The notes beneath the pieces were generated by a model. The model saw nothing but the letters and a program-made list of their open reading frames with translations. It did not search any database and was not told the origin of the DNA. 44,109 bases of DNA from IMG/VR virus record IMGVR_UViG_3300025812_000003, one strand, 5' to 3'. The position numbers were made by a program, and so were the translations under genes. Below, piece after piece: positions 6,436 through 27,120 of the stretch (its first letter is position 1; every line of letters starts with the position of its first letter). Source of the DNA: a virus.

Positions 6436-8247
6436 TTACCAATCCACCTCGTACTCCCCCGGGAACATCAGGGACTCGGCCCACCAGGGCGAGAACATCT
6501 TCCCGGCCTTCTGGACGAAGTAGCCGAACGCCGCGTCCAGGATGTAGTGGGTGGCCTTGTCGCCGACGTGCCGGTTGGAGCGCCCCGTGGCCTGCTGCAG
6601 GTGGAGCGCCGTGGTCCAGTCGTACCATTCCGGGTCGAGGGCGATGCGCGCCTTCACGTAGTTCGACAGGAACTCGTACGGGACCTTCACCACGATGCTG
6701 AACCGGCTGAGGTCGTCCTTCAGGTCCAGCCCCTCGGTCATCGAGGGCGATATGATGACGGTCGGCACCCCCACCTTCTCGATGTGCTCCGCCACGATCC
6801 TCTCCCTGTCCCCCTTCACCCCCTCCTCGTGCGTCAGCACGCGGTCCCCGAGCCCGTGGTCCCGCAGGTACTGCACGACGTACTTGGTGATCTTGTAGGT
6901 GTGGGTGTGGATGATCCCCTTATCGTTGGCATGCTTCCTCAGGATTCTCTCTATCTCCGCGGCCACCAGGGGGAGGGACTGGTCGATGGTCTTGGCGCTC
7001 ATGTTGGCGACTGGGCGGTAGAGGATGCGGCGGTTCTCCACCGGGAAGTCGCTCGGGAGGGCCACGCACACCGCGTCGTCCTTGTCGATGCCCAGGTTCC
7101 GCAGGAAGGTGCCGAAGTCCAGGATGGTGGCGCTCATCAGGACGACCTTCTCGGCCTTGGAGAACAGGAGTTTGTCGGCGAAGAGGGTGGCGGTCAGGGG
7201 CTTGATGATCATCTTGGCGGGCAGGAGGGGAATCTTGGCCCCGCACTCCCGCTTCCAGCACTTCGTCGTCCCGGGCCGGAGCTTGGCCCGGCATTCCGGG
7301 CACTTGGTAGTCTCGGACTCGGACCATACCATCCATCCCTTGCGGTCCTCGGACTTGAGGAACATGTCGAGCTGCCCGAGGTACCTTTCCAGGCCGCTCG
7401 CCTTCTTGCTGAGCCTCGCGGCCTCCTTCTTCATGGTGTCGCGCAGGCCCTCCGCCTCCATCTGGAGCTTCTGCACGGCAACGAGGACGGCGGGCTGGAA
7501 CTCCTGCTTGAGCCAGTCGAGCGCCACCCCCATGCCCTCGGCGTCGGGCTTGACGAAGGGGACGGAGCAGAAGTCTATCCCCACTTCCTCGCATCGCCAG
7601 CGGGTGACCTCGGTGTTGGCCATCCCGAGTATGTGCTGCTCGGTGCCGTGCGCCTCGTCCAGGACGAGCATGGAGCGGTTCCTGAGTTGCCCCGAAAAGG
7701 ACGTTTCCGCGAGGTAGTAGGCGAAGTTGGTCACGCCCAGGGGGCTGGAGCAAAAGATTTTCTTGGCGACCTTGTACCCGTGGCACCCCCCCGGCTGGGC
7801 GTGCTCCTCGTACATGAAGTCGGCCGCCTCGCAGTCCATCTCCTCGCCGCCCTCCTCCACCGGATAGTAGTAGCCGCAGGTGTAGTTGGACTTGCCCTTC
7901 AGCTCCACGAGGCCCATGCCGCCGAAGTCCCCGAGGTACTGCTCGGTGAGGGTCTTCTGCGGCGACAGGATGTACGTCCCGGCATCATAGCACCCGCCAG
8001 GTGCCATGACCCGGGCCCACGACCCCGCCGCTATGGCCAGCCCGGACTTCCCGGAGCCCGTGGGAAGCTCAAGGACGACGTACTTCTTGTTCTCCAGGTA
8101 CGCCCGCTCCACCGCCTTGAGGGCGGCCTCCTGCGCAGGACGGATGCTGTCGAACGGGAAATGATCCCTGATTTCCTTGGATTCTATCAGCGACAGCCAT
8201 TTCCTGCAAGTCTCTCGGGCTTCCTGGACGGCTAGGGGGTCCCCCAT
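6436..8247 (-). CDS. DinG/XPD-family SF2 DNA helicase
   Basis: Q-motif IRPAQ, ELPTGSGKS, LDEAH, MSAT, MTEGLDL, QATGRSNRH. Confidence 0.9.
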   Translation of the reverse strand: MGDPLAVQEARETCRKWLSLIESKEIRDHFPFDSIRPAQEAALKAVERAYLENKKYVVLELPTGSGKSGLAIAAGSWARVMAPGGCYDAGTYILSPQKTLTEQYLGDFGGMGLVELKGKSNYTCGYYYPVEEGGEEMDCEAADFMYEEHAQPGGCHGYKVAKKIFCSSPLGVTNFAYYLAETSFSGQLRNRSMLVLDEAHGTEQHILGMANTEVTRWRCEEVGIDFCSVPFVKPDAEGMGVALDWLKQEFQPAVLVAVQKLQMEAEGLRDTMKKEAARLSKKASGLERYLGQLDMFLKSEDRKGWMVWSESETTKCPECRAKLRPGTTKCWKRECGAKIPLLPAKMIIKPLTATLFADKLLFSKAEKVVLMSATILDFGTFLRNLGIDKDDAVCVALPSDFPVENRRILYRPVANMSAKTIDQSLPLVAAEIERILRKHANDKGIIHTHTYKITKYVVQYLRDHGLGDRVLTHEEGVKGDRERIVAEHIEKVGVPTVIISPSMTEGLDLKDDLSRFSIVVKVPYEFLSNYVKARIALDPEWYDWTTALHLQQATGRSNRHVGDKATHYILDAAFGYFVQKAGKMFSPWWAESLMFPGEYEVDW

Positions 8248-16451: not shown

Positions 16452-16699
16452 TTGTTCTTCTCCATGTAGTCTAATACCATTTTCACCTCATCAATGGTTG
16501 CATCTCCTTTAAGAACATTGGCACGATATGAGATGACAAACACGTTTCCTGAAATATACCCTTTACTGTTGTTGATGCGATCCAAAGAAGGAGAGTTTGG
16601 ACCCGCTTTACCCCTAGATAAATATAAAGGAATCCCCAGGACTGGACAAATGTCGGGAACCACTATATCTTCAATCTTAATGGTAGATGCCTCTACCAT
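16448..16699 (-). pseudogene. truncated HNH-type homing endonuclease (nuclease end only)
   Basis: AT-rich; PDICPVLGIPL..SPSLDRINNSKGYISGNVFVISYRANVLK closely parallels the C-terminus of 38495-39124; N-terminal part absent. Confidence 0.65.
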
Positions 16700-16720
16700 A
16701 TAATACTGAAAGTCAAAAAA

Positions 16721-16795
<75 letters not shown>

Positions 16796-16803
16796 TTCTA
16801 TTT

Positions 16804-17005
16804 AAGGGCGCGGCAGTCAAGATTTGGGCCGGGGGCCAACGCCGGTCAGCGGCGTGGTGGACTACCAACCATCATCAACGGCGAAAACGAACCACCAACC
16901 ACCGACAACCAACAGTTCCCTAACAGGCTCACGCCCGCAGTGTAACCCTGCCGACTATCTTTATCGTCGGAGGCCAGGTAAGGCTTTCCGACTAGCCGCG
17001 CTCTT
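16804..17005 (-). ncRNA. unassigned ~200-nt structured RNA with GU-repeat loop
   Basis: 5' GCGCGGC-U-AGUC pairs with 3' GACU-GCCGCGC; internal hairpins CCGAC/GUCGG, GCGGGC-GUGA-GCCUGU, ACGCCG/CGGCGU. Confidence 0.6.
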
Positions 17006-17032
17006 CCGGGCGGCCCCCGTCAACTTGGCTGC

Positions 17033-17344
17033 CTACTCCTTCTTGGCCGGCACGAGCTCGCCGAGGACGTCCTCGTTGGGCTCGTATCCCTTGATGGCCG
17101 CCACGGCGTTGGTCGCCTTGATGGCCATGTCCAGCTTCCGGCGCTCGCGGGCGATGTTGGATATGAGCCTGTCCAGGGCCACGACGTCGTACGTCGGCTC
17201 GACCTTCTCCGGCGTGTCGCCCTTCAGTCCGCGATAGGTCGTCCGTGCGGCGGAGTTCTCGTTGCGCAGGCCCTGGAGCTCGGCGTGCCGCTCGGCCAGC
17301 GTCTTCGCCCACGTGAGCCCCTCGTTGATCGTCATCTTTGTCAT
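17033..17344 (-). CDS. DUF6847/DIP1984-like coiled-coil protein
   Basis: MTINEGLTWAKTLAERHAEL..PTYDVVALDRLISNIARERRKLDMAIKATNA; RBS GGAGG; own promoter motif at 17364-17372. Confidence 0.6.
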   Translation of the reverse strand: MTKMTINEGLTWAKTLAERHAELQGLRNENSAARTTYRGLKGDTPEKVEPTYDVVALDRLISNIARERRKLDMAIKATNAVAAIKGYEPNEDVLGELVPAKKE

Positions 17345-17378
17345 GTCCGTTTCCTCCCGAAGCACAATACCGAAAAAT

Positions 17379-17678
17379 TCGTGGACCGGTAAGCCGAATT
17401 CTGTCCCTCTTGCGAGGTGGCAACCATTCGTCTGGGACGGCCGTCGCCGGCCGCCTCAAGCTCGCTACCCGAGGGTGATGCGGGCCGGGCAGGCCCTCCC
17501 CTCCTATTTGCGATTGCTCCGCATGAAGCTTGCCGCGTTTCACTCCGGACCTAACCGGCTCGTCTCTGTGGCGCTGGTTGTCACGCCTTGCGGCGTGCCG
17601 GGGCGTTACCCCGCATGCTGCCCTATGGAGTTCGGACTTTCCTCCCCCCCTCACGGGGCGGCGGTTGCCTGGTCCACA
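17379..17678 (-). ncRNA. rnpB: RNase P RNA (compact bacterial type A-like)
   Basis: GAGGAAAGUCC and ACAGAAUUCGGCUUA P4 signatures; AGCGCCACAGAGA and GUGAAAC conserved regions; P1 GUGGACC/GGUCCAC; GGCAACC/GGUUGCC P2. Confidence 0.95.
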
Positions 17679-17680
17679 AG

Positions 17681-18094
17681 CTAGGCTGCCTGGAACTCCC
17701 CCTGCCTGACCCCCTCCTCGTACCACGAGGCCCAATTGGCCATCTCCCTGAGCGCGAGGTCGGGGTCCAGGTACACCCCCGCGCACGTCCCGCGCCCTCC
17801 CGGGGCGAACATCCTGCGGACCAGCGGGCTCATCCGCTTGATGTCCCCGATGCCGAGGGACAGGAGCTCGAAGTCGGGGCCGGGCGGGAAGCACGGCGTG
17901 CCGTCCCCTCCCTCGGGGGCCTCCTTGAGCCGGAACGATATCCTGCGCTCGGCGGGGAGCGAGACAGCGACCGACACGTCGTCGTCGTACCTGCCCGCGG
18001 ACGACGCCCTGAGCCGGGCCTCGAAGATCGGCTCCTCGGTCCTGTAGAGGCGCTTCACCAAGTCCGCAGCGGATGCCCTGCTTGCATTGTCCAT
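17681..18094 (-). CDS. hypothetical protein
   Basis: ATG 18094 after GGAGG; fills the gap between ssrA and rnpB. Confidence 0.55.
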   Translation of the reverse strand: MDNASRASAADLVKRLYRTEEPIFEARLRASSAGRYDDDVSVAVSLPAERRISFRLKEAPEGGDGTPCFPPGPDFELLSLGIGDIKRMSPLVRRMFAPGGRGTCAGVYLDPDLALREMANWASWYEEGVRQGEFQAA

Positions 18095-18135
18095 TTTCGT
18101 ATACCCTCCAGTCAAATACCAGGGATCACGGAATC

Positions 18136-18493
18136 TGGTGGAGGCGGGGGGAGTCGAACCCCCGTCCGAGGAGTCCCACGATCAGGAGACTACACGCTTG
18201 TCCCGGTTCCACTGCCTTCGCCAGCGCCCCAAGGTACCGGGCGATGCAAGGACGCTGGCTAACTTTCGGAAATTCGCCCCGGCCTGCAAGCTTCGCCGGA
18301 GCTACTCTCGCCATATCAACGCCCCGTCCCCTGCATGCGAGCCTGGAGGGGGAGGCGTGGCCCAGATGTCTCTAGGCCATTGCGTACATAGCAAGTGGTT
18401 TTGCGTCTGTACTTTCCATCCCTGTTGCGGGCGGCATGGTCCCCCGGCGTGCCTCCTGGACACGAGCGCTCCCGTCGAAACCGGAACGCCCCC
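18136..18493 (-). ncRNA. ssrA: tmRNA; predicted tag (A)AKPLAMYAMA at 18404-18372
   Basis: 5' GGGGGCG..GGUUUCGAC, 3' GGUUCGACUCCCCCCGCCUCCACCA, G3:U70 pair, 358 nt, internal GCA-initiated short frame. Confidence 0.95.
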
Positions 18494-18527
18494 ACAGTTG
18501 TATGATACAACGAAAAGCCAAGCAACT

Positions 18528-18621
18528 TGGTCCCGGCGTCAGGAGTCGAACCCGATCCATGCTCTAATCTGGAGCTTATGCGGTTTATAAGACCGCTCGT
18601 TCGGCCGCAAACTTCGCCGGG
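18528..18621 (-). tRNA. atypical tRNA with UAU (Ile) anticodon and long variable arm
   Basis: CCCGGCG/CGCCGGG-ACCA; GCGGT-CTTATAA-ACCGC; ~24-nt extra arm with GCUC/GAGC stem; TTCGACT loop. Confidence 0.8.
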
Positions 18622-18691
18622 CAAAATAACGGGCGGGACATCAGCCTATAAAGCCGCCCCGAAGGGCGGCACATTCGCTCCCGCCCGAAAA

Positions 18692-18768
18692 TGGTACCGT
18701 CGACGGGGCTCAAACCCGCTAATGCCCTGGTTGAAAGCCAGGGGACTCGATGCTTCGTCTTCGACGGT
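18692..18768 (-). tRNA. tRNA-Glu(UUC), non-canonical D and T loops
   Basis: ACCGTCG/CGACGGT-ACCA; CCTGG-CTTTCAA-CCAGG; T-loop TTTGAGC; no GG in D-loop. Confidence 0.8.
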
Positions 18769-18773
18769 AAAAC

Positions 18774-18926
18774 GAGGCGATGGCCGATGCCGTTCGGCAA
18801 CAGGCCAACGGCAGCCACGAAGACTGCCGACTGCGCGGCCACTCGGTTTCTCTCCTGCCCCGATCCGCTGCGCCGGAACTCCAAGGAGACTCTGTCCGGC
18901 CGCTCCTTGCCAGCCTTCATCGCCCC
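18774..18926 (-). ncRNA. unassigned ~153-nt multi-branched RNA between tRNA-Cys and tRNA-Glu
   Basis: GGGGCGAUG/CAUCGCCUC closing stem; GCGGCC/GGCCGC; CGGCAGUC-UUCG-UGGCUGCCG; UGCCG-AA-CGGCA. Confidence 0.55.
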
Positions 18927-18929
18927 AAC

Positions 18930-19005
18930 TGGAGCACCCGGAGGGACTCGAACCCCCGATTAGAGGCTCTGCAGGCCTCCGCCTTTGCCGCTTGGCCACG
19001 GGTGC
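18930..19005 (-). tRNA. tRNA-Cys(GCA)
   Basis: GAGGC-CTGCAGA-GCCTC; U73; CCA. Confidence 0.93.
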
Positions 19006-19011
19006 CAAAAC

Positions 19012-19113
19012 CTACTTCGGGTCCACGCCAAACCACCAGCCGCGCGGCTTGGTGATGAACCACAGCCCGGCCAAAAAGGCCAGGAGATAACCGGATGCGA
19101 CGACCCAATACAT
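19012..19113 (-). CDS. 33-aa membrane microprotein (not in ORF track)
   Basis: MYWVVASGYLLAFLAGLWFITKPRGWWFGVDPK; RBS GGAG; fills the spacer exactly. Confidence 0.55.
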   Translation of the reverse strand: MYWVVASGYLLAFLAGLWFITKPRGWWFGVDPK

Positions 19114-19122
19114 GGGCACTCC

Positions 19123-19323
19123 CTATTCTTCCGCCACGTCCTGTTGGAAAATCCTCCTGAGCTTGAGCTGCGTGGCCCTTCCCAGGCGGCAGAACTCCAC
19201 CACCACCCAGCTTGCGGTGTGGGCGATGAGCCACCCCACCACTATCCACTGGGTGATCCGGTCGAACAGCCTGACCGGCTGGACGTGATACAGCTCCCTG
19301 CAAAACTCAAAGAAAGAACCCAT
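19123..19323 (-). CDS. small membrane protein
   Basis: RBS GAGGAGG; hydrophobic WIVVGWLIAHTASWVVV. Confidence 0.6.
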   Translation of the reverse strand: MGSFFEFCRELYHVQPVRLFDRITQWIVVGWLIAHTASWVVVEFCRLGRATQLKLRRIFQQDVAEE

Positions 19324-19385
19324 CTCTCGGCACCTCCTCGGACGGCTGGTTGGGTCGCCCTCGGCGATGCCAAGGACCCGGATTT

Positions 19386-19460
19386 TGGTAGCCTGTGGGG
19401 GTGTCGATCCCCCTTCCCCAGGTTGAGAACCTGGGATCCTAGCCGGTAGACGAACAGGCC
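19386..19460 (-). tRNA. tRNA-Glu(CUC)
   Basis: CCAGG-TTCTCAA-CCTGG; T-loop ATCGACA; CCA. Confidence 0.9.
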
Positions 19461-19467
19461 GAAAACT

Positions 19468-19543
19468 TGGTGGAAGCGAAGGGATTCGGACCCTCTGCCT
19501 CGGCGTTGCGAGCGCCGCGCTCTCCCAATTGAGCTACGCTCCC
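19468..19543 (-). tRNA. tRNA-Ala(CGC)
   Basis: CGGCG-CTCGCAA-CGCCG; G3:U70; CCA. Confidence 0.93.
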
Positions 19544-19544
19544 A

Positions 19545-19619
19545 TGGTGCGACCTACAGGAGTCGAACCTGTCGCTCCTTCCGTGTCAGGGAAGGCGTCT
19601 ACCGCTGGCATAAGGCCGC
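19545..19619 (-). tRNA. tRNA-Val(GAC)
   Basis: CTTCC-CTGACAC-GGAAG; TTCGACT; ACCA; weak D stem. Confidence 0.9.
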
Positions 19620-19627
19620 ACGAAATT

Positions 19628-19706
19628 TGGCGGTCTGTACGGGATTCGGACCCGTGGTCTCTGACGTGACAGGTCAGCGGGGACGACCAGGCTCCCCTAA
19701 CAGACC
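19628..19706 (-). tRNA. tRNA-Asp(GUC)
   Basis: CTGAC-CTGTCAC-GTCAG; G73; CCA. Confidence 0.93.
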
Positions 19707-19713
19707 GAAAGAC

Positions 19714-19833
19714 TGGCGGCAAGGCCGGGATAGCTTTGGCCCCCTGCCCGGACGTGGTATCCGGAAGCGCTGGGACGCTCGCTTTATCCGACTTGACCCA
19801 GCACCCGACCCGCAGGCCGGGCCGCCAGATGCC
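19714..19833 (-). ncRNA. unassigned ~120-nt CCA-terminated multi-arm RNA
   Basis: Ends UUGCC-G-CCA, 5' GGCA can close it; arms CCCGGCC/GGUCGGG, GCUGGG/CCCAGC, CCGGA/UCCGG, GGCC/GGCC; no TTCGA loop. Confidence 0.5.
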
Positions 19834-19839
19834 GAACCT

Positions 19840-19915
19840 TGGTGGACCCGGGGGGGCTCGAACCCCCGACCTCATGGCTGCCGGCCATGCGCTCTCCCGG
19901 CTGAGCTACGGGCCC
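19840..19915 (-). tRNA. tRNA-Ala(GGC)
   Basis: CATGG-CCGGCAG-CCATG; G3:U70; CCA. Confidence 0.93.
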
Positions 19916-19922
19916 ACGAAAA

Positions 19923-19996
19923 TGGAGCGGGACACGGGACTCGGACCCGTTTCTCTGGCTTGGAGGGCCAGGGCACAACCCATATACCAGTCCCGC
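19923..19996 (-). tRNA. tRNA-Gly(UCC)
   Basis: CTGGC-CCTCCAA-GCCAG; U73; CCA. Confidence 0.9.
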
Positions 19997-20004
19997 TCAA
20001 AGCT

Positions 20005-20079
20005 TGGTGGACCCGGAGGGAGTCGAACCCCCGACCTCTGCATTGCAAGTGCAGCGCCTTCCCGCTCGGCTACGAGCCC
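20005..20079 (-). tRNA. tRNA-Ala(UGC)
   Basis: CTGCA-CTTGCAA-TGCAG; G3:U70; CCA. Confidence 0.94.
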
Positions 20080-20081
20080 AC

Positions 20082-20144
20082 GGGATGCCTCGGGTCATTG
20101 CTTTATTCGGACGTGGCCGACTTGCGCAGACGCCAAAACATCCC
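20082..20144 (-). ncRNA. structured inter-tRNA spacer
   Basis: 12-bp stem GGGAUGUUUUGG/CCGAGGCAUCCC (with G:U pairs) enclosing UGC..UCGG/CCGA..GCA. Confidence 0.4.
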
Positions 20145-20151
20145 ACGAACC

Positions 20152-20226
20152 TGGAGCGGGCGAGGGGAGTCGAACCCCCCACCTGAGCCTTGGCAAGGCC
20201 CCACTCTACCGCTGAGCTACGCCCGC
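20152..20226 (-). tRNA. tRNA-Gly(GCC)
   Basis: GGGCC-TTGCCAA-GGCTC; U73; CCA. Confidence 0.95.
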
Positions 20227-20234
20227 CCGAAACT

Positions 20235-20313
20235 TGGTACTGGGGGTGGGATTCGAACCCACGATATGCCTGTTTGTAGGACAGGAGGCTTTGGCCGCTC
20301 GCCGCACCCCAGT
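20235..20313 (-). tRNA. tRNA-Val(UAC)
   Basis: ACTGGGG/CCCCAGT-ACCA; CCTGT-CCTACAA-ACAGG; TTCGAAT. Confidence 0.88.
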
Positions 20314-20323
20314 AAATCCCCCC

Positions 20324-20361
20324 AAAAATGTAAAAGGCGCTGGAAACCTCCCAGCGCCCTC
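20324..20361 (-). terminator. attenuator terminator (3:4 hairpin) directly upstream of the tRNA array
   Basis: GAGGGCGCUGGGA-GGU-UUCCAGCGCC-UUUUACAUUUUU. Confidence 0.8.
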
Positions 20362-20383
20362 GGAACCTTGGATTGGCCTCTTC

Positions 20384-20500
20384 CTACCCAATCCCTCCGT
20401 CCGAGGGCCGAATATCGCCCTCGACCATGCCACTCCCGCACACGGCAGCGGCTTCCGCCGCTGCTATGCATTCTTCGCGTCCTATGGCCAGTGCCTTCAT
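20384..20500 (-). CDS. 38-aa leader peptide of the tRNA array (not in ORF track)
   Basis: MKALAIGREECIAAAEAAAVCGSGMVEGDIRPSDGGIG; RBS GAGGGA; overlaps antiterminator segments. Confidence 0.7.
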   Translation of the reverse strand: MKALAIGREECIAAAEAAAVCGSGMVEGDIRPSDGGIG

Positions 20501-20514
20501 GTTCCCTCGTCCAT

Positions 20515-20540
20515 ATAATACCTCCCGTAGTCGAAAAATC
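20515..20540 (-). promoter_or_regulatory. promoter of leader/tRNA operon (AGGTATTAT -10 motif)
   Basis: Matches the GGTATT(A/G)T motif repeated upstream of minus-strand units. Confidence 0.65.
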
Positions 20541-20606
20541 GCGGGAAATCTTCATGGGCTGGCTTTCCGCCCGGAAGCCAGCCCCTTGCAGTCGGGTTCT
20601 TCCGGC

Positions 20607-21272
20607 TCATTTCCGCCGCAGGACTCCCGCGATACCCAGGAGGCCCATGCCGACGAGGCCGAGGCTGGCGGGCTCCGGCGTGGACGAGACGTCCCCGGTC
20701 CAGGTCCCGAGCCCGGTCCAGTAGTTCGGGTAGCTGCTCCAGCCGTTGTAGTTGCCGTACACGTTGGTGCCGTCGCCGTCGCCGGGCTGGCCTTCCCATT
20801 TGGTCGTTACGAACCCACCGGAACAATATGGGTACCCAGGACAGGGCCAGCCGATTATCGGGCCGGTGTAGTTGTCGATGTTGAAGTCCCAATATTGGAT
20901 GCCGTCCTTGTCGGTGGTCAGGGAAAACACGCTGACGACCCCGAAGGCGTCGGGACCAGCGACGAAATTGGCCAAGTCCCACACAGTCCTCCCGTCCGTA
21001 AAGCTGTAGTCGATGATCGTGCCTCCGGGCAGCGTATCGGGCTCAAGACTGTAGGTGCGGTTCGACTTGAGCGGGGACGACAGGGTGAAGTAGCCGCTGA
21101 CCCCGCCAAGCCCCCAGCCCCCCACGTACCAAAACTGGTCGCCGGTGTACGTGTAGGTATAGGTCTGCGAAATCGCCATGGCTGGTGCCAGGGCTGCCAG
21201 GAACAATGCGATGGTCAACAACAATCTGACTGCTTTGAGTGCAAACTTGCGACTGCCGCTGCTTTCGGTCAT
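20607..21272 (-). CDS. PEP-CTERM sorting-domain surface protein with signal peptide
   Basis: N-terminal LLLTIALFLAALAPAMA; C-terminal TPEPASLGLVGMGLLGIAGVLRRK; RBS AGGAGG. Confidence 0.9.
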   Translation of the reverse strand: MTESSGSRKFALKAVRLLLTIALFLAALAPAMAISQTYTYTYTGDQFWYVGGWGLGGVSGYFTLSSPLKSNRTYSLEPDTLPGGTIIDYSFTDGRTVWDLANFVAGPDAFGVVSVFSLTTDKDGIQYWDFNIDNYTGPIIGWPCPGYPYCSGGFVTTKWEGQPGDGDGTNVYGNYNGWSSYPNYWTGLGTWTGDVSSTPEPASLGLVGMGLLGIAGVLRRK

Positions 21273-22778: not shown

Positions 22779-23828
22779 TTATCCCTCCTTGATTTTTTTG
22801 GCTATCTCTTCGCCCCATTTCTTGGCGGCGTGCTTCTCCAGGTCCTCCCAATGGCCGGAGGCGACCTCCATGACGGCGCGCCCGTGGTTCTCCTTTTCCA
22901 CCTGGGCCTCCCATAGGTCCTCGTCCCGGACGGACCTGACGTTCTTGCGCACCAGGGCGGCCAGGACGTTGGGCCGGAGGGCATCCAGCTCCCACGAGGA
23001 GTCCCCGAACTTCCGTATGTAGTCCCCCGACCGGCTGTCCGTGGTCTTGGCGGGGTTGTTCTCGGGCTTGTACTTTTCGACTTGGTCCATGTTGAGGGCG
23101 ACCCGCGTGATCGCAACCCTGTCCGCCTCGTCCTCGCCGACGTGGTGGGAGACGAACATCCGTATGCGGTCCTGTATGTCCCTGGTCATGTCGATTCCCG
23201 AGGGGTCGTGGTCCCCGAAATGATACACGTGGACGGACTTCCCCTCGTCCAGGTAGCGGACGAATCTCATGGCCGCCCCCCACATCTCGGACTGGGAGGT
23301 GTAGCCGCGGCAGGAAAGGTAGGGCACGTCTATGTCCTGCGTCTCGCAGATGCTCTGGAAGACGCCCAGGAGGGCGTCCTTCTCGATCCAAACCTCGACC
23401 CGGCAATCCTGGGCCGCCCACTTGTCCGTCCTGAAGCTCTTGGCGGCGGACTCCATGATGTCGGACGGGTCGTCCCAGTGCCCGATGGTCTTGAGCTCCC
23501 TGGTCCGGTCCTCGACGATGTCCCAGTCGAGCAGCCCGGCGAGCCGGGCCTCGTTCACGACGTCCCCGAGCCACTTGTAGTTGGGCGTGGCGTTCTTGAT
23601 GCCCTTCGGGTCGCCGGGCGGGACGTGCCGCCACTTGTCCGTTCCCGGGATCTTGACGTACTTGCGGGTGTCGGGAAACAGGTCGTTCGACACCATGACG
23701 TAGTATATCTGGCGGAGGGTGAGCTTCAGCCCGGCATAGTCCGGATCGTTGACGATGTCGTCGAGGTAGCGGACCGCGGCCAGCTTGTCCGTCCCGAACG
23801 AGATGTCCTGGTAGCAAATCTTGGGCAT
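22779..23828 (-). CDS. Topo VI-A/Spo11-like winged-helix + Toprim protein
   Basis: LTLRQIYY, VEVWIEKDAL, RGYTS, FGDHDPSG, WELDAL; RBS AGGAGG. Confidence 0.75.
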   Translation of the reverse strand: MPKICYQDISFGTDKLAAVRYLDDIVNDPDYAGLKLTLRQIYYVMVSNDLFPDTRKYVKIPGTDKWRHVPPGDPKGIKNATPNYKWLGDVVNEARLAGLLDWDIVEDRTRELKTIGHWDDPSDIMESAAKSFRTDKWAAQDCRVEVWIEKDALLGVFQSICETQDIDVPYLSCRGYTSQSEMWGAAMRFVRYLDEGKSVHVYHFGDHDPSGIDMTRDIQDRIRMFVSHHVGEDEADRVAITRVALNMDQVEKYKPENNPAKTTDSRSGDYIRKFGDSSWELDALRPNVLAALVRKNVRSVRDEDLWEAQVEKENHGRAVMEVASGHWEDLEKHAAKKWGEEIAKKIKEG

Positions 23829-23972
23829 GAGGTTCCTCCTAATACAATATACACTGCCCCGGGAGGTTTCGGCAAGGAATCCGAGTGCGGGATGGGTGCC
23901 GGTGCCGCTTCCGGCGCTCCCGGCACCCACCGGTTTGGAGGGACTGACTAGCGTGGCCTTTGGTGCTGAAGC

Positions 23973-24285: not shown

Positions 24286-27072
24286 CTATAGCCCGCAGGA
24301 ACCGTTGCCGCACGCTGGCTCCTTCATGGAGGTGGTGTGGTCGTTCTTCTCGAACTCCGCCAGCCCGGCCCAGTCGAGCTCCGGCATCTTCGCCGTGCGC
24401 TCCCGGAACTCCGCCTCCGTGACCTCCGCGAATGGTGCCTGCTTGTATATGTGGCTGGAGTAGGGGAGGAACGACACGCCGCCGATGGTGTCGAAGTGCC
24501 GGTACACCCATGCCGCCACGTCCAGCCACTCGTGGTCCCGGACGTACACCGTGGTGCTGGGGTTGTGCTCCGTCCAGTGCTTCTTGTAGGTCAGGTAGAG
24601 TTCGAGCTGCCCTATGGCGGTGATGCCGTCCCTGAGGACGGACGACGAGGGCGACTCGCTGGGGAAGTAGAACACGTCCACGTCGTCCGGCTTGTTGGCC
24701 TCCGGCTCGCTGGGCACCCCGGCCTGCTTGAGGAACTGCCCTATGGGGTTCTTGCGATCCTCGCGGATGGAGACGAGCAGGAAGCGCCCGTAGCGGGGAT
24801 GTATGCCGGGCGACGAGTTCGCCAGCAGGGCGACCGTCCCCGATGGCTTGACGCAGGTGGCGGCCGCGGACTGCGGGATGCCGAGCCTCTCCGACCACTC
24901 CTTGTTGACCTCGATGACGTGCTGGCGGAGGTCGTCGAGCAGGGAGGCCAGCTCGGGGCCGTTGGTCGACAGCAGCTTGTTGTCCATGATCCCCGTGAGG
25001 CTGACGCCCAGTAGGCGCTCCTCCTCGGCATTCTTCTGCCAGTCCTTGCGGAGGTAGCGGAAGTTGGTGAGGGTGGACTGGAGCGTCCCCATGATGGTGG
25101 CGATGCGCACCTTCTCCATGAGGATTTTCTTGTCGTCGCCGGGCCTGGCCACCGCCTCGGTGAGGTTGCACAGGCCCTTGGAGCGCAGGATGATCTCCAC
25201 GCACGGGTTGACCCCGAAGTCGATGTCCTTGGTCTCGCGCCGCCCGTTGGAGGCCGAATGCTTGGTCGCGGCCTCCCGGTTGAAGATGCCCCGCTCGCCG
25301 GAGCGGGACTCGTACAGGGACAGCCACTCCCGCAGGAACATGCCCATCTCCGGCCTCTCCGTGTAGACCGCCGAATTGTTGGCGAGGGCCCGCTGGGGGT
25401 TCTCGATCCACCACTGGCCGGTCTTGGCGTTCCGCATGCGGTCGTCCGACAGGTTGGAGAGCGATATCATGGCGGAGCGCCTCACCCCGCCGCTCACCAC
25501 GATGTCCGCCACCATGCACATCAGGTCGTGGCATTCCAGGGACGTCAGCCTGCGCCCTGCGGCGTTCCTGAAAAGCTGGACGGCGAACTTGAACAGCCGG
25601 TCGAGCGGGTCGGGCCCGGACGCCCGCCCGCCGAACGTCTTGAGGGGGGAGCCCGCGGGACGGAGGGCGCTGAGGTCCCACTTCGGGACGAGGCCGCCGT
25701 ACAGGAGGGCGATGAGCTGGCGGAACGCGGTGGCCCAGCCTATCTTGGAGTCCCTGACCTTGATGACCGTGGGCTCGTCGAAGAAGCTCTCGGCGATGAC
25801 GGGCAGCTTCCCGACGTACTGCCGCTCCACGGAGAACCCGAGGCCCACGCCGCACATGCTTATGTAGACGGCCTCGTCGAAGGCACGGGGGTCGTCTACC
25901 GCCATGTAGCTGCAGTTTCCAGTGAGAATCCCATTGGCAAGGACGAAGGAATGCGTGGTTGGTTCCACTACGCAGAAGACTTCCTCGGGCTCGTCGAGTA
26001 GATCGATAGACATCACTTTGAAAATGCCGGACCTCCGTAGCGTAAGCCTCTGGAGAGGGGCATAGCGATGGCCAAAATTGGTCTCCTCCACCATGGATGT
26101 GTTTTGACCCGTGACCAAGTACCCGGCAAGGGGGGCGATGGACTTCACAAATTCTATGGCTTCCGAGTCTTGCGAGGATATTCCCGGTTGGTGTTCGTTG
26201 TTGTGACCGTCTGCCGCCAGATACCCCATGAGCCAGCTAGCCAAGTAACAAGCTTCCTTGCTTACAGGAATGTGCTTCCAATCTTTCATGTGTCCTTGAT
26301 GAAATATGACTACGGCGTCGCCGCTATAGGACGGGGGGTAGCATATTGAAGAATGACCATATTTCTCAAACACCCCAAGATGCCGCATGTCCTTCTCGCC
26401 ACAAAGACGGACCTTGGCCCTTCCCCTGGCATCTATGGTCCCGTCACCGAACCCAAACCCGGCAATCCACGCTTCGTCATTGGCGGGCAACTCAGTCTTG
26501 GGTCCTACAAAAGATATGAAATCCCCAACATTAAGGTCCGTGACTTCGCCTCGATTCACCGTGACCCAACGATGGTCGAGAGTTACCCTAACCCTGTGAC
26601 GGAGATTGGTTTTGGAACGTCCATTTTCCTCGATGGCGGGCTTGAAAGTCACCTCTTGAAGCGGCTGGACGCCGAATGATCGAATCTCGGCATTCCTCCA
26701 TTCGCCGTCGCCGGACATAACAATCTGAGTGGTGCCAACCGTTTCACCGAAAGTTTTGGAACCGTGGTATGTGAGGAATCCCTCGGTTCCCGCAAAACAG
26801 TTGTACCCGGCGACCTCGTCCTTCTCCAGCGCCTTGCCCGCCGTCATCAGCGCCCGCATGGACGGCATGACCTCCATGCGGAGTATCGAGCCCTCGATCT
26901 CCCCGGCGATCTCCTCGCGGAACTCCTCCGGGATGCGCTTCGAGATGAAGTCGACGTACCTGCGGACCGTTTCCCCCCAGTCCTCCCGCCTGCCCTTCTC
27001 GGGCACCCACCTGGCGTACCTGGACTTGAAGATGTACGACTGGAAGGGCGTGATCCCCTGGCTTTTCGGCAT
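24286..27072 (-). CDS. nrdJ: class II (adenosylcobalamin) ribonucleotide reductase, intein-containing
   Basis: SRYARW, MPSMRAL, GYNC, SGGVRRSA, GVNPCVEI, CNLTE, TCVKPSGT, C-terminal ACGNGSC. Confidence 0.95.
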   Translation of the reverse strand: MPKSQGITPFQSYIFKSRYARWVPEKGRREDWGETVRRYVDFISKRIPEEFREEIAGEIEGSILRMEVMPSMRALMTAGKALEKDEVAGYNCFAGTEGFLTYHGSKTFGETVGTTQIVMSGDGEWRNAEIRSFGVQPLQEVTFKPAIEENGRSKTNLRHRVRVTLDHRWVTVNRGEVTDLNVGDFISFVGPKTELPANDEAWIAGFGFGDGTIDARGRAKVRLCGEKDMRHLGVFEKYGHSSICYPPSYSGDAVVIFHQGHMKDWKHIPVSKEACYLASWLMGYLAADGHNNEHQPGISSQDSEAIEFVKSIAPLAGYLVTGQNTSMVEETNFGHRYAPLQRLTLRRSGIFKVMSIDLLDEPEEVFCVVEPTTHSFVLANGILTGNCSYMAVDDPRAFDEAVYISMCGVGLGFSVERQYVGKLPVIAESFFDEPTVIKVRDSKIGWATAFRQLIALLYGGLVPKWDLSALRPAGSPLKTFGGRASGPDPLDRLFKFAVQLFRNAAGRRLTSLECHDLMCMVADIVVSGGVRRSAMISLSNLSDDRMRNAKTGQWWIENPQRALANNSAVYTERPEMGMFLREWLSLYESRSGERGIFNREAATKHSASNGRRETKDIDFGVNPCVEIILRSKGLCNLTEAVARPGDDKKILMEKVRIATIMGTLQSTLTNFRYLRKDWQKNAEEERLLGVSLTGIMDNKLLSTNGPELASLLDDLRQHVIEVNKEWSERLGIPQSAAATCVKPSGTVALLANSSPGIHPRYGRFLLVSIREDRKNPIGQFLKQAGVPSEPEANKPDDVDVFYFPSESPSSSVLRDGITAIGQLELYLTYKKHWTEHNPSTTVYVRDHEWLDVAAWVYRHFDTIGGVSFLPYSSHIYKQAPFAEVTEAEFRERTAKMPELDWAGLAEFEKNDHTTSMKEPACGNGSCGL
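25915..26799 (-). mobile_element. 295-aa intein with LAGLIDADG endonuclease
   Basis: GYN|CFAGTE...HSFVLANGILTGN|CSY; WIAGFGFGDG and WLMGYLAADG motifs; lower GC than flanks. Confidence 0.93.
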
Positions 27073-27120
27073 GGCTTCCCCTTGTCCTCTTTCCCGGCCT
27101 AAACCCATTGTGAGATTTTC

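Follow-up and report, generated by a model that had tools for sequence, protein, structure and literature searches.

We analyzed a 44,109-nucleotide (nt) stretch of viral DNA (IMG/VR record IMGVR_UViG_3300025812_000003; "the window" below means this whole stretch), in which a short leader on the minus strand precedes an array of transfer RNA (tRNA) genes. Comparison with related phages makes it very probable that this element is a leader-peptide transcription attenuator heading a huge-phage tRNA array, likely serving as a sensor of decoding speed that feeds back on tRNA supply. Covariation among the aligned leaders demonstrates that a conserved short open reading frame (ORF) sits inside two mutually exclusive helices, a predicted antiterminator (segments 2 and 3, or 2:3) and a predicted terminator (segments 3 and 4, or 3:4).

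A short ORF within alternative RNA helices

The leader ORF (20384..20500; all leader and array coordinates refer to the minus strand) was identified by ORF calling and comprises 38 sense codons and a TAG stop, encoding the peptide MKALAIGREECIAAAEAAAVCGSGMVEGDIRPSDGGIG. Segment 2 (20400..20408), the 5' strand of the putative antiterminator, occupies codons 31-34, with 13 nt between its end and the stop codon; segment 3 (20356..20364) is its perfect 9-nt complement, and sequence and covariation support both. Segment 3 in turn shares 6 nt with the extended stem, and 3 nt with the G+C core, of an intrinsic-terminator-like hairpin (20361-20333; 13 pairs, 7 of them G-C, with a loop of 3), which together with an interrupted T-tract makes up the terminator call at 20324..20361. 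Folding adds a hairpin, H3 (20370..20394), that holds the stop codon (20386-20384) in its loop, and a segment 1 (20417..20423) that in the window is predicted to act as an anti-antiterminator by pairing with segment 2. The first tRNA gene, tRNA-Val(UAC) (20313-20235), starts 10 nt after the T-tract, a gap too small for a separate promoter. A preliminary description, drawn from the letters of the window, had proposed the ORF, segments 1-3, the terminator and this first tRNA, and all of them lie on the minus strand where it had put them.

Upstream of the ORF, sequence comparison identifies a promoter-like block (20511..20538) made up of a T-run, a GACTAC..GG spacer motif and a -10-like TATTAT (20520-20515). 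This block also stands at the head of the leaders of relatives, there accompanied by a TTGACA -35 element 17 nt upstream. A Shine-Dalgarno (SD)-like sequence, CGAGGG (20504..20509), contains GAGGG at 20508-20504 and lies 3 nt before the ATG.

The leader is conserved ahead of a syntenic tRNA array

Using as query the ribonucleotide reductase encoded 3.8 kilobases (kb) upstream of the leader, we recovered 66 IMG/VR loci at 39-81% identity. ARAGORN, run on all 66, finds a syntenic Val/Gly/Ala/Asp/Glu/Cys array 3-6 kb downstream of the reductase in 21 of them, several on contigs of 317-463 kb with a CheckV completeness of 99-100%. The same leader is present in 21/21 of these loci, ahead of tRNA-Val(UAC) or, in L092, of tRNA-Val(GAC).

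We compared 14 distinct leaders of this Val/Gly/Ala type, the set to which counts of 14 refer throughout. All contain an ATG-initiated ORF of 31-49 codons in a homologous frame, which holds 0 stops (the two remaining frames hold 41 and 23), and the leaders of two close relatives (L089 and L090) differ by eight synonymous and two non-synonymous codons. Judged by these patterns, the leader ORF is probably translated. Every leader of the set has a predicted terminator, with the stop codon positioned 21-24 nt before its stem; between the end of segment 2 and the stop codon lie 9-15 nt, and the 2:3 duplex spans 7-11 base pairs (bp), of which 3-6 nt are common to the terminator stem. Distant leaders diverge widely in sequence but retain middle parts rich in Val, Ala, Gly, Glu, Asp and Cys, and at least one Cys codon occurs in 16/16 distinct leaders of the Val/Gly/Ala/Asp/Glu/Cys type.

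Both helices covary

The window leader folds into four hairpins with a minimum free energy (MFE) of -88.5 kcal/mol (z=-5.4; none of 200 shuffled sequences is as stable). When the upstream 144 nt are dinucleotide-shuffled, 0.3% of 20,000 sequences gain, as here, a complement of at least 9 nt overlapping the terminator arm. In energy, a fold with the 2:3 helix forced (-83.0 kcal/mol) comes close to the terminator fold (-85.9 kcal/mol), with a gap of 2.9 kcal/mol.

In our covariation alignment of the 14 leaders (A3), 96.8% of the 126 cells of the antiterminator helix 2:3 are paired and 6/9 pairs have changed on both sides, a result matched in 0/500 shuffles and set against 35-66% in slid controls. 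For the base of the terminator, 97.1% of 70 cells are paired and 3/5 pairs have changed on both sides, with 0/500 shuffles matching the share of cells paired and slid controls at 41-73%. Column 69, in segment 3, covaries both with column 13 in segment 2 and with column 89 in the terminator 3' arm, which matches the prediction of two alternative helices that are both selected. Moreover, RNAalifold returned the 2:3 helix unaided as the consensus. The exclusive 2:3 and 3:4 pairings that had been proposed from the window by itself thus have comparative support, since both helices covary.

A model (R1) of segment 2, H3, segment 3 and the terminator, built from the 14 leaders, finds a 15th leader outside its training set in L123 at 65.9 bits; for the window, itself a training sequence, the score is 63.5 bits (20324-20416). 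R1 does not detect the leaders of other arrays described below at E up to 0.1, and their kinship with the window leader is one of layout and C-terminal motifs only. No Rfam family matches the leader at gathering score, and none, the His, Thr, Leu and Trp leader families and T-box included, matches it in a search of 20200-20650 at E up to 10.

Leader codons mirror the tRNAs of the array

Under strict wobble rules, 24/38 codons of the window leader are read by tRNAs of its own array, compared with 38.1% of codons in 27 presumed genes (binomial P=0.0015); such a binomial test had been suggested in the preliminary description, and it comes out in favor of the proposed match. Among 101 ATG-initiated ORFs of 30-60 codons in all six frames of the window, the leader alone reaches its share of array-read codons. 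A cognate codon is present in the leader for 12/12 distinct array anticodons (simulated P=0.009), including those of the Cys and Ile(UAU) tRNAs (UGC twice and AUA twice); the earlier observation that these two tRNAs are represented is therefore borne out, and coverage extends to the whole array. The preliminary count of 27/38 array-read codons stands at the level of amino acids, but strict wobble reduces it to 24 because tRNA-Glu(CUC) does not read GAA. For the same reason, the uninterrupted run of 14 array-read codons that had been noted is broken under strict decoding, and the longest strict run is 6.

The complete relatives allow the same comparison across different arrays. In each of four complete genomes of 317-463 kb, the 49-69 tRNA matches are distributed over four or five arrays grouped by amino-acid set, and many of these arrays have at their head a promoter block, small ORF and terminator of their own. 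The sets are kept across genomes: Val/Gly/Ala/Asp/Glu/Cys (all GNN codon boxes plus Cys), Tyr/Leu/Ser, His/Arg/Asn/Lys (with Trp/Gln in some), Pro/Met/Phe, and Ile/Thr/Gln. Leader composition follows the leader's own array, for example in Tyr/Leu/Ser, His/Arg/Asn/Lys, Pro/Met/Phe and Ile/Thr/Gln leaders. In the relative G005, the leader of the Tyr/Leu/Ser array encodes MKNLSSNSLSSLSYSSSLLSGLVLPDGWDG, and that of a His/Arg/Asn/Lys/Phe/Met/Pro/Gln/Trp array encodes MRNRKPNPMQWQPKRHFSRPSFGGLPFAP.

We assembled a test set of 16 leaders from the window and the four complete genomes. Amino acids of the leader's own array are enriched in 16/16 leaders, with binomial P values from 0.08 to 1e-7. Within individual genomes, the true pairing of leaders with arrays ranks 1/6, 1/120, 1/6 and 1/24 among all pairings, or 1/103,680 combined. 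The leaders contain a cognate codon for 137/144 distinct array anticodons vs ~83 expected; coverage is complete in 10/16 leaders, and a single 28-codon leader covers 16/16 anticodons. Covariation of leader codons with array anticodons in related phages, which the preliminary description had named as a check, is thus what we find in this wider set, and the leader itself is kept in all 21 syntenic loci.

A predicted mechanism coupling ribosome position to read-through

In the mechanism we propose, the leader ORF would be translated while RNA polymerase is still transcribing it. Fast decoding would carry the ribosome to the last ~10 codons or the stop codon, where it would cover segment 2 and open H3, leaving segment 3 to form the terminator and ending transcription ahead of the tRNAs. 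If any of the tested tRNAs were scarce, the ribosome would lag and segment 2 would be free to pair with segment 3; the terminator would then lose its base, and polymerase would continue into the tRNA genes. The outcome would be a negative-feedback loop operating array by array, with host tRNA decay, host nucleases and phage demand as candidate causes of shortage. The direction of control in this scheme follows from geometry: segment 2 lies within the last ~10 codons in the 14 leaders, so that an advanced ribosome would block the antiterminator and a lagging one would free it.

Folds of truncated transcripts support the geometry of this scheme. When transcripts are cut before the terminator 3' arm and folded with no ribosome, most or all 2:3 pairs form in 14/14 leaders (all pairs in 12), even though the window leader has a 1:2 hairpin. 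With a ribosome placed on the same cut transcripts, the 2:3 helix forms at most upstream positions of the aminoacyl (A) site and is lost when the A site lies in about the last ten codons. The preliminary description had called for an additional mechanism to explain stalls far upstream of segment 1, a need that these folds remove. According to the same models, the default state of an untranslated leader is probably read-through, unlike that of the trp leader. The trp/his-type layout recognized earlier stands in its ORF, terminator and antiterminator; the branch by which an untranslated leader gives termination is not backed by these folds.

Extending this scheme to whole genomes, we consider it probable, if with less assurance than for the attenuator itself, that huge phages run an operon-by-operon tRNA homeostat, in which nearly every array is headed by a "roll-call" leader with about one codon per tRNA species. 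If so, phage tRNAs would be transcribed set by set, each only when ribosomes signal a shortage of that particular set. It would also mean that a class of attenuation governs RNA genes of the translation apparatus, and that a virus could take over and balance the tRNA pool of the cell.

Contrary observations and alternative explanations

Several observations weigh against a translated attenuator that senses tRNA supply. At the level of initiation, the promoter claimed in the preliminary description retains its -10-like TATTAT, but the -35 element of the window is degenerate and no -35 hexamer passes a consensus promoter scan at the leader site. The SD-like motif is separated from the ATG by only 3 nt and would fall at the extreme 5' end of any transcript begun from TATTAT. 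The G+C content at third codon positions (GC3) is 0.63 in the leader vs 0.79 in genes. The visible array offers no cognate tRNA for three GAA codons of the window leader, since the tRNA-Glu there has the anticodon CUC; tRNA-Glu(UUC) is found in the arrays of several relatives and is absent from the window. In the wider set, five of the 16 enrichment P values fall between 0.03 and 0.08, and the leaders are homologous across genomes, so they represent fewer independent events than sequences. A 2:3 duplex of at least 7 bp appears in only 3/8 non-GNN leaders under a narrow search, and we found no leader at the Ile/Thr/Gln arrays of G005, G002 and G004, at the Ser array of G004 or at the suppressor-tRNA arrays. 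On the side of folding, formation of the 2:3 helix with no ribosome leaves the trp-style rule that an untranslated leader terminates unsupported, and full-length equilibrium folds with a ribosome mask give sensing windows that shift with transcript ends and criteria.

Of the alternatives, one accepts the switch and differs in what selected it. Here, host anticodon nucleases would cut Val/Ala/Gly/Asp/Glu/Cys tRNAs, and leader ribosomes stalled by the loss would induce replacements as a counter-defense. The logic of the leader would indeed respond to tRNA cleavage, and rescue of infection by phage tRNAs from tRNA-cleaving defenses is documented (PMC10264068, PMC11464382, PMC11555353). The sequence indicates no nuclease, and leaders for nearly all amino-acid sets, in genomes with 49-69 tRNA matches, are better explained by replacement or homeostasis of the tRNA pool in general than by a response to a single nuclease. 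We therefore judge counter-defense to be a possible but unlikely origin of the switch.

Far less probable is a small functional peptide as the product of the ORF, with the hairpin as its mere terminator and the tRNAs made by leaky read-through without sensing. Conservation of the ORF, the mostly synonymous changes between close relatives and a C-terminal motif common to the leaders would all suit such a peptide. A fixed peptide function would not account, however, for a composition that changes from array to array (Ser/Leu/Tyr, Arg/Lys/Asn/His, Pro/Met/Phe, Thr/Ile/Gln), for the sampling of nearly every isoacceptor, or for a covarying helix in competition with the terminator. In the middle of the peptide, composition is kept although sequence conservation is poor.

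We likewise give very little credence to the view that the 5' leader is an untranslated structured RNA with an incidental ORF, whether as an element for processing or stability, as a partial terminator that acts constitutively, or as a riboswitch that binds a protein or tRNA. Open frames are numerous in GC-rich DNA, the GC3 of the leader is unlike that of genes, and the SD spacing is poor. Against these points stand a frame open in one register in 14/14 leaders, start and stop positions fixed relative to the promoter block and the terminator, the match of codons to arrays across different arrays, and the lack of any T-box or other Rfam match at E up to 10. Finally, an inverted logic in which stalling favors termination, or a timer that delays tRNA synthesis without measuring supply, gains from a direction of control that was read from geometry alone and from the inconsistency of the equilibrium folds, but is highly unlikely given that segment 2 is placed in 14/14 leaders where an advanced ribosome blocks the antiterminator and a lagging one leaves it free.

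Further elements of the leader region

The attenuator region of the window contains additional features. A hairpin without a U-tract (20556..20585, minus strand), recognized from its sequence just 3' of the upstream gene for a PEP-CTERM protein (20607-21272), is likely the end of the upstream transcription unit. A 10-mer from the promoter-like block, TATTATATGG, occurs exactly twice in the window, at 20511-20520 and 16696-16705 (both minus strand), vs 0.27 matches expected; allowing one mismatch, there are three matches vs 0.27 expected. The second copy lies at the start of an 83-amino-acid endonuclease ORF (16699-16450; phrog_3322, E=2e-26), just after tRNA-Gly(CCC), and a T-run followed by GACT precedes both copies.

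The motif CGAGGG is present in three copies, in the SD region (20504-20509), segment 1 (20417-20423) and segment 3 (20356-20363), all on the minus strand and all complementary to segment 2. The SD region pairs with segment 2 in the MFE folds of two relatives; from these models, such pairing could add translational control, or act as an anti-antiterminator in those relatives. Within the ORF, MFE folding predicts a GC-rich hairpin at codons 13-19 (20445..20464), with similar hairpins in the folds of relatives, and this hairpin could be a pause site for RNA polymerase that synchronizes ribosome and polymerase.

The downstream array and RNA genes

Behind the leader, the first nine tRNA genes are tightly spaced (19386..20313, minus strand; Val-UAC, Gly-GCC, Ala-UGC, Gly-UCC, Ala-GGC, Asp-GUC, Val-GAC, Ala-CGC and Glu-CUC), and from their arrangement these are the genes placed most directly behind the predicted switch. 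tRNA-Cys(GCA) and tRNA-Ile(UAU) (18528..19005, minus strand) follow behind two small ORFs and are candidate members of the same transcript. Beyond Ile-UAU come a transfer-messenger RNA (tmRNA), an ORF, the RNase P RNA, another ORF and Gly-CCC; the array spans 16721-20313 on the minus strand. A terminator-like hairpin lies ahead of tRNA-Ile, and beyond the tmRNA there is a promoter-like site; given these intervening signals, control by the leader of the tmRNA and RNase P RNA, which the preliminary description had entertained, is doubtful.

The tmRNA (18136-18493, minus strand) encodes the tag AKPLAMYAMA, and tmRNAs of relatives encode AEPLSMYAMA, ANMQYAFA and ATAQYAFA. The RNase P RNA (17374-17680, minus strand), within the tRNA region, is full-length and of class A, at 203 bits. 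tRNA-Ile(UAU) (18528-18621, minus strand) is unusually long at 94 nt, and ARAGORN missed an 88%-identical homologue at 17181-17274 of L086. AUA codons are confined to leaders of the subgroup possessing tRNA-Ile(UAU); for two such leaders (L090 and L102), the gene is absent from the visible locus.

In L123, an endonuclease VII family gene (18060-18467; PF02945, E=9e-19) is inserted between the leader terminator and the first tRNA, and from this arrangement would put ~400 nt between switch and array. Three complete relatives (L157, L160 and L161, corresponding to G002, G003 and G004) have two or three genes in a row for tRNAs with the anticodon CUA, that is, amber suppressors, which hints at recoding of TAG. 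The stop codon is TAA in 8/8 compared Val/Gly/Ala-type leaders of the subgroup to which G002-G004 belong and TAG in 5/6 leaders of the window subgroup. Conserved ORFs of 17-18 codons, sharing the motif LDLFT and lacking an obvious terminator, stop 11-22 nt short of pairs of tRNA-Phe genes in L158 (9351-9407), L159 (minus strand) and L162 (11845-11901); by their position, these may be a different, shorter kind of leader.

Genomic context, environmental distribution and host

A second virus record (G001; 64.9 kb, estimated 20% complete) has 91% of words in common with the window and an identical leader, and its remaining 26 kb yield no tRNA and no Rfam match. Matches to PHROG families include helicase, ribonucleotide reductase, tail-fibre-like, virion lytic transglycosylase and endonuclease families. 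The window stretch is present in 20 metagenome runs from soil, peat and wetland, with no RNA run containing it among the 24 runs considered, and a spanning contig is identical to the window over 601 nt in the four DNA runs compared, which therefore reveal no micro-diversity.

Two neighboring proteins give weak host hints. One (20607-21272, minus strand) has a PEP-CTERM sorting signal by Pfam, and the other, topoisomerase-like (22779-23930, minus strand), has a named homologue at 49% identity in Edaphobacter (Acidobacteriota). Both sequence-based hints, weak as they are, agree with the peat and soil runs.

Other queries were less productive than the reductase. The PEP-CTERM neighbor, a 26-nt tRNA-Val pattern, a 1127-amino-acid protein and a blastn search against a phage collection all gave no relatives, and the 38-amino-acid leader peptide is too short a query to find any. 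A metagenome scan with a PEP-CTERM alignment yielded two loci, both with no downstream tRNA. The topoisomerase-like neighbor as query retrieved 80 loci; among the 60 scanned (L006-L065), tRNAs are found in L058 only. L058 is an unrelated IMG/VR phage contig with a 29-tRNA array, where a strong hairpin and T-run (8140-8195) end ~4 nt before the first tRNA; a matching leader was not identified ahead of that array.

The ribonucleotide reductase gene of the window (24286-27108, minus strand) aligns over 2871 nt in its four closest relatives (L102-L105) and over ~1900 nt in most others, which suggests an insertion of ~300 amino acids in the window and these four. Pfam detects no intein domain in the reductase at E up to 0.001.

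Comparison with known systems

tRNA genes are a textbook case of promoter-level, growth-rate control, and leader-peptide attenuation is known for amino-acid supply. In the leaders described here, the logic of the ribosome as sensor appears to be turned on tRNAs themselves, each leader listing nearly every isoacceptor of its operon. This offers a testable answer to how large phages regulate their dozens of tRNAs, and a handle on why phages carry tRNAs, since the sensor would show which shortage the phage expects. Such a leader would also be a compact natural part reporting the availability of chosen tRNAs, with uses in synthetic biology, and its layout gives a signature for metagenome searches: a promoter block, a small ORF whose stop codon precedes a terminator by 21-24 nt, and a tRNA behind it. 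Full-text literature searches, with subscription journals mostly outside their reach, returned no description of attenuation of tRNA genes or arrays.

The leader-peptide attenuators of amino-acid operons include trpL, hisL, leuL and pheL (for pheL, PMC3082878) as well as the multivalent thrL and ilvGMEDA leaders. The phage leader resembles them in its short ORF, here predicted to be translated, its control codons, a terminator ahead of the genes, and exclusive helices read by ribosome position. It differs in that it would govern tRNA genes rather than biosynthesis or charging enzymes, in that it samples many amino acids, with near every isoacceptor once, in place of one repeated codon, and in that its untranslated default looks like read-through rather than termination. 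By analogy, the closest mechanism is ribosome-mediated attenuation of the multivalent (thr, ilv) kind. The phage leader is not a member of the known leader families, because its target is tRNA genes and it matches no Rfam leader.

Closer to the translation apparatus, pheST of E. coli, with its pheM leader, is a case in which attenuation of phenylalanyl-tRNA synthetase senses charged tRNA. It shares with the phage leader the attenuation of a component of that apparatus, but concerns a single amino acid, a protein gene and a non-phage system. T-box riboswitches bind tRNA directly, without translation, to switch between terminator and antiterminator. Their goal of reading the state of a tRNA is the same, whereas the phage leader has a conserved ORF and no T-box match.

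In mycobacteria, stalling on the whiB7 upstream ORF (uORF) leads to antitermination, and knock-down of tRNAs and tRNA synthetases activates it (Poulton et al., bioRxiv 10.1101/2023.06.02.543512). There, uORF composition sets what is sensed, as we propose for the phage leaders; the whiB7 uORF is bacterial, controls a transcription factor, is enriched for alanine only, and is not known to match downstream tRNA genes one to one. Phage tRNA arrays have been discussed as codon compensation and counter-defense (eLife 2023, PMC10264068; Nature 2024, PMC11464382; Nat Commun 2024, PMC11555353). Those papers share with the present case a large phage with its own tRNA set; they appear to concern the function of the tRNAs, whereas the leaders described here would gate the transcription of the arrays.

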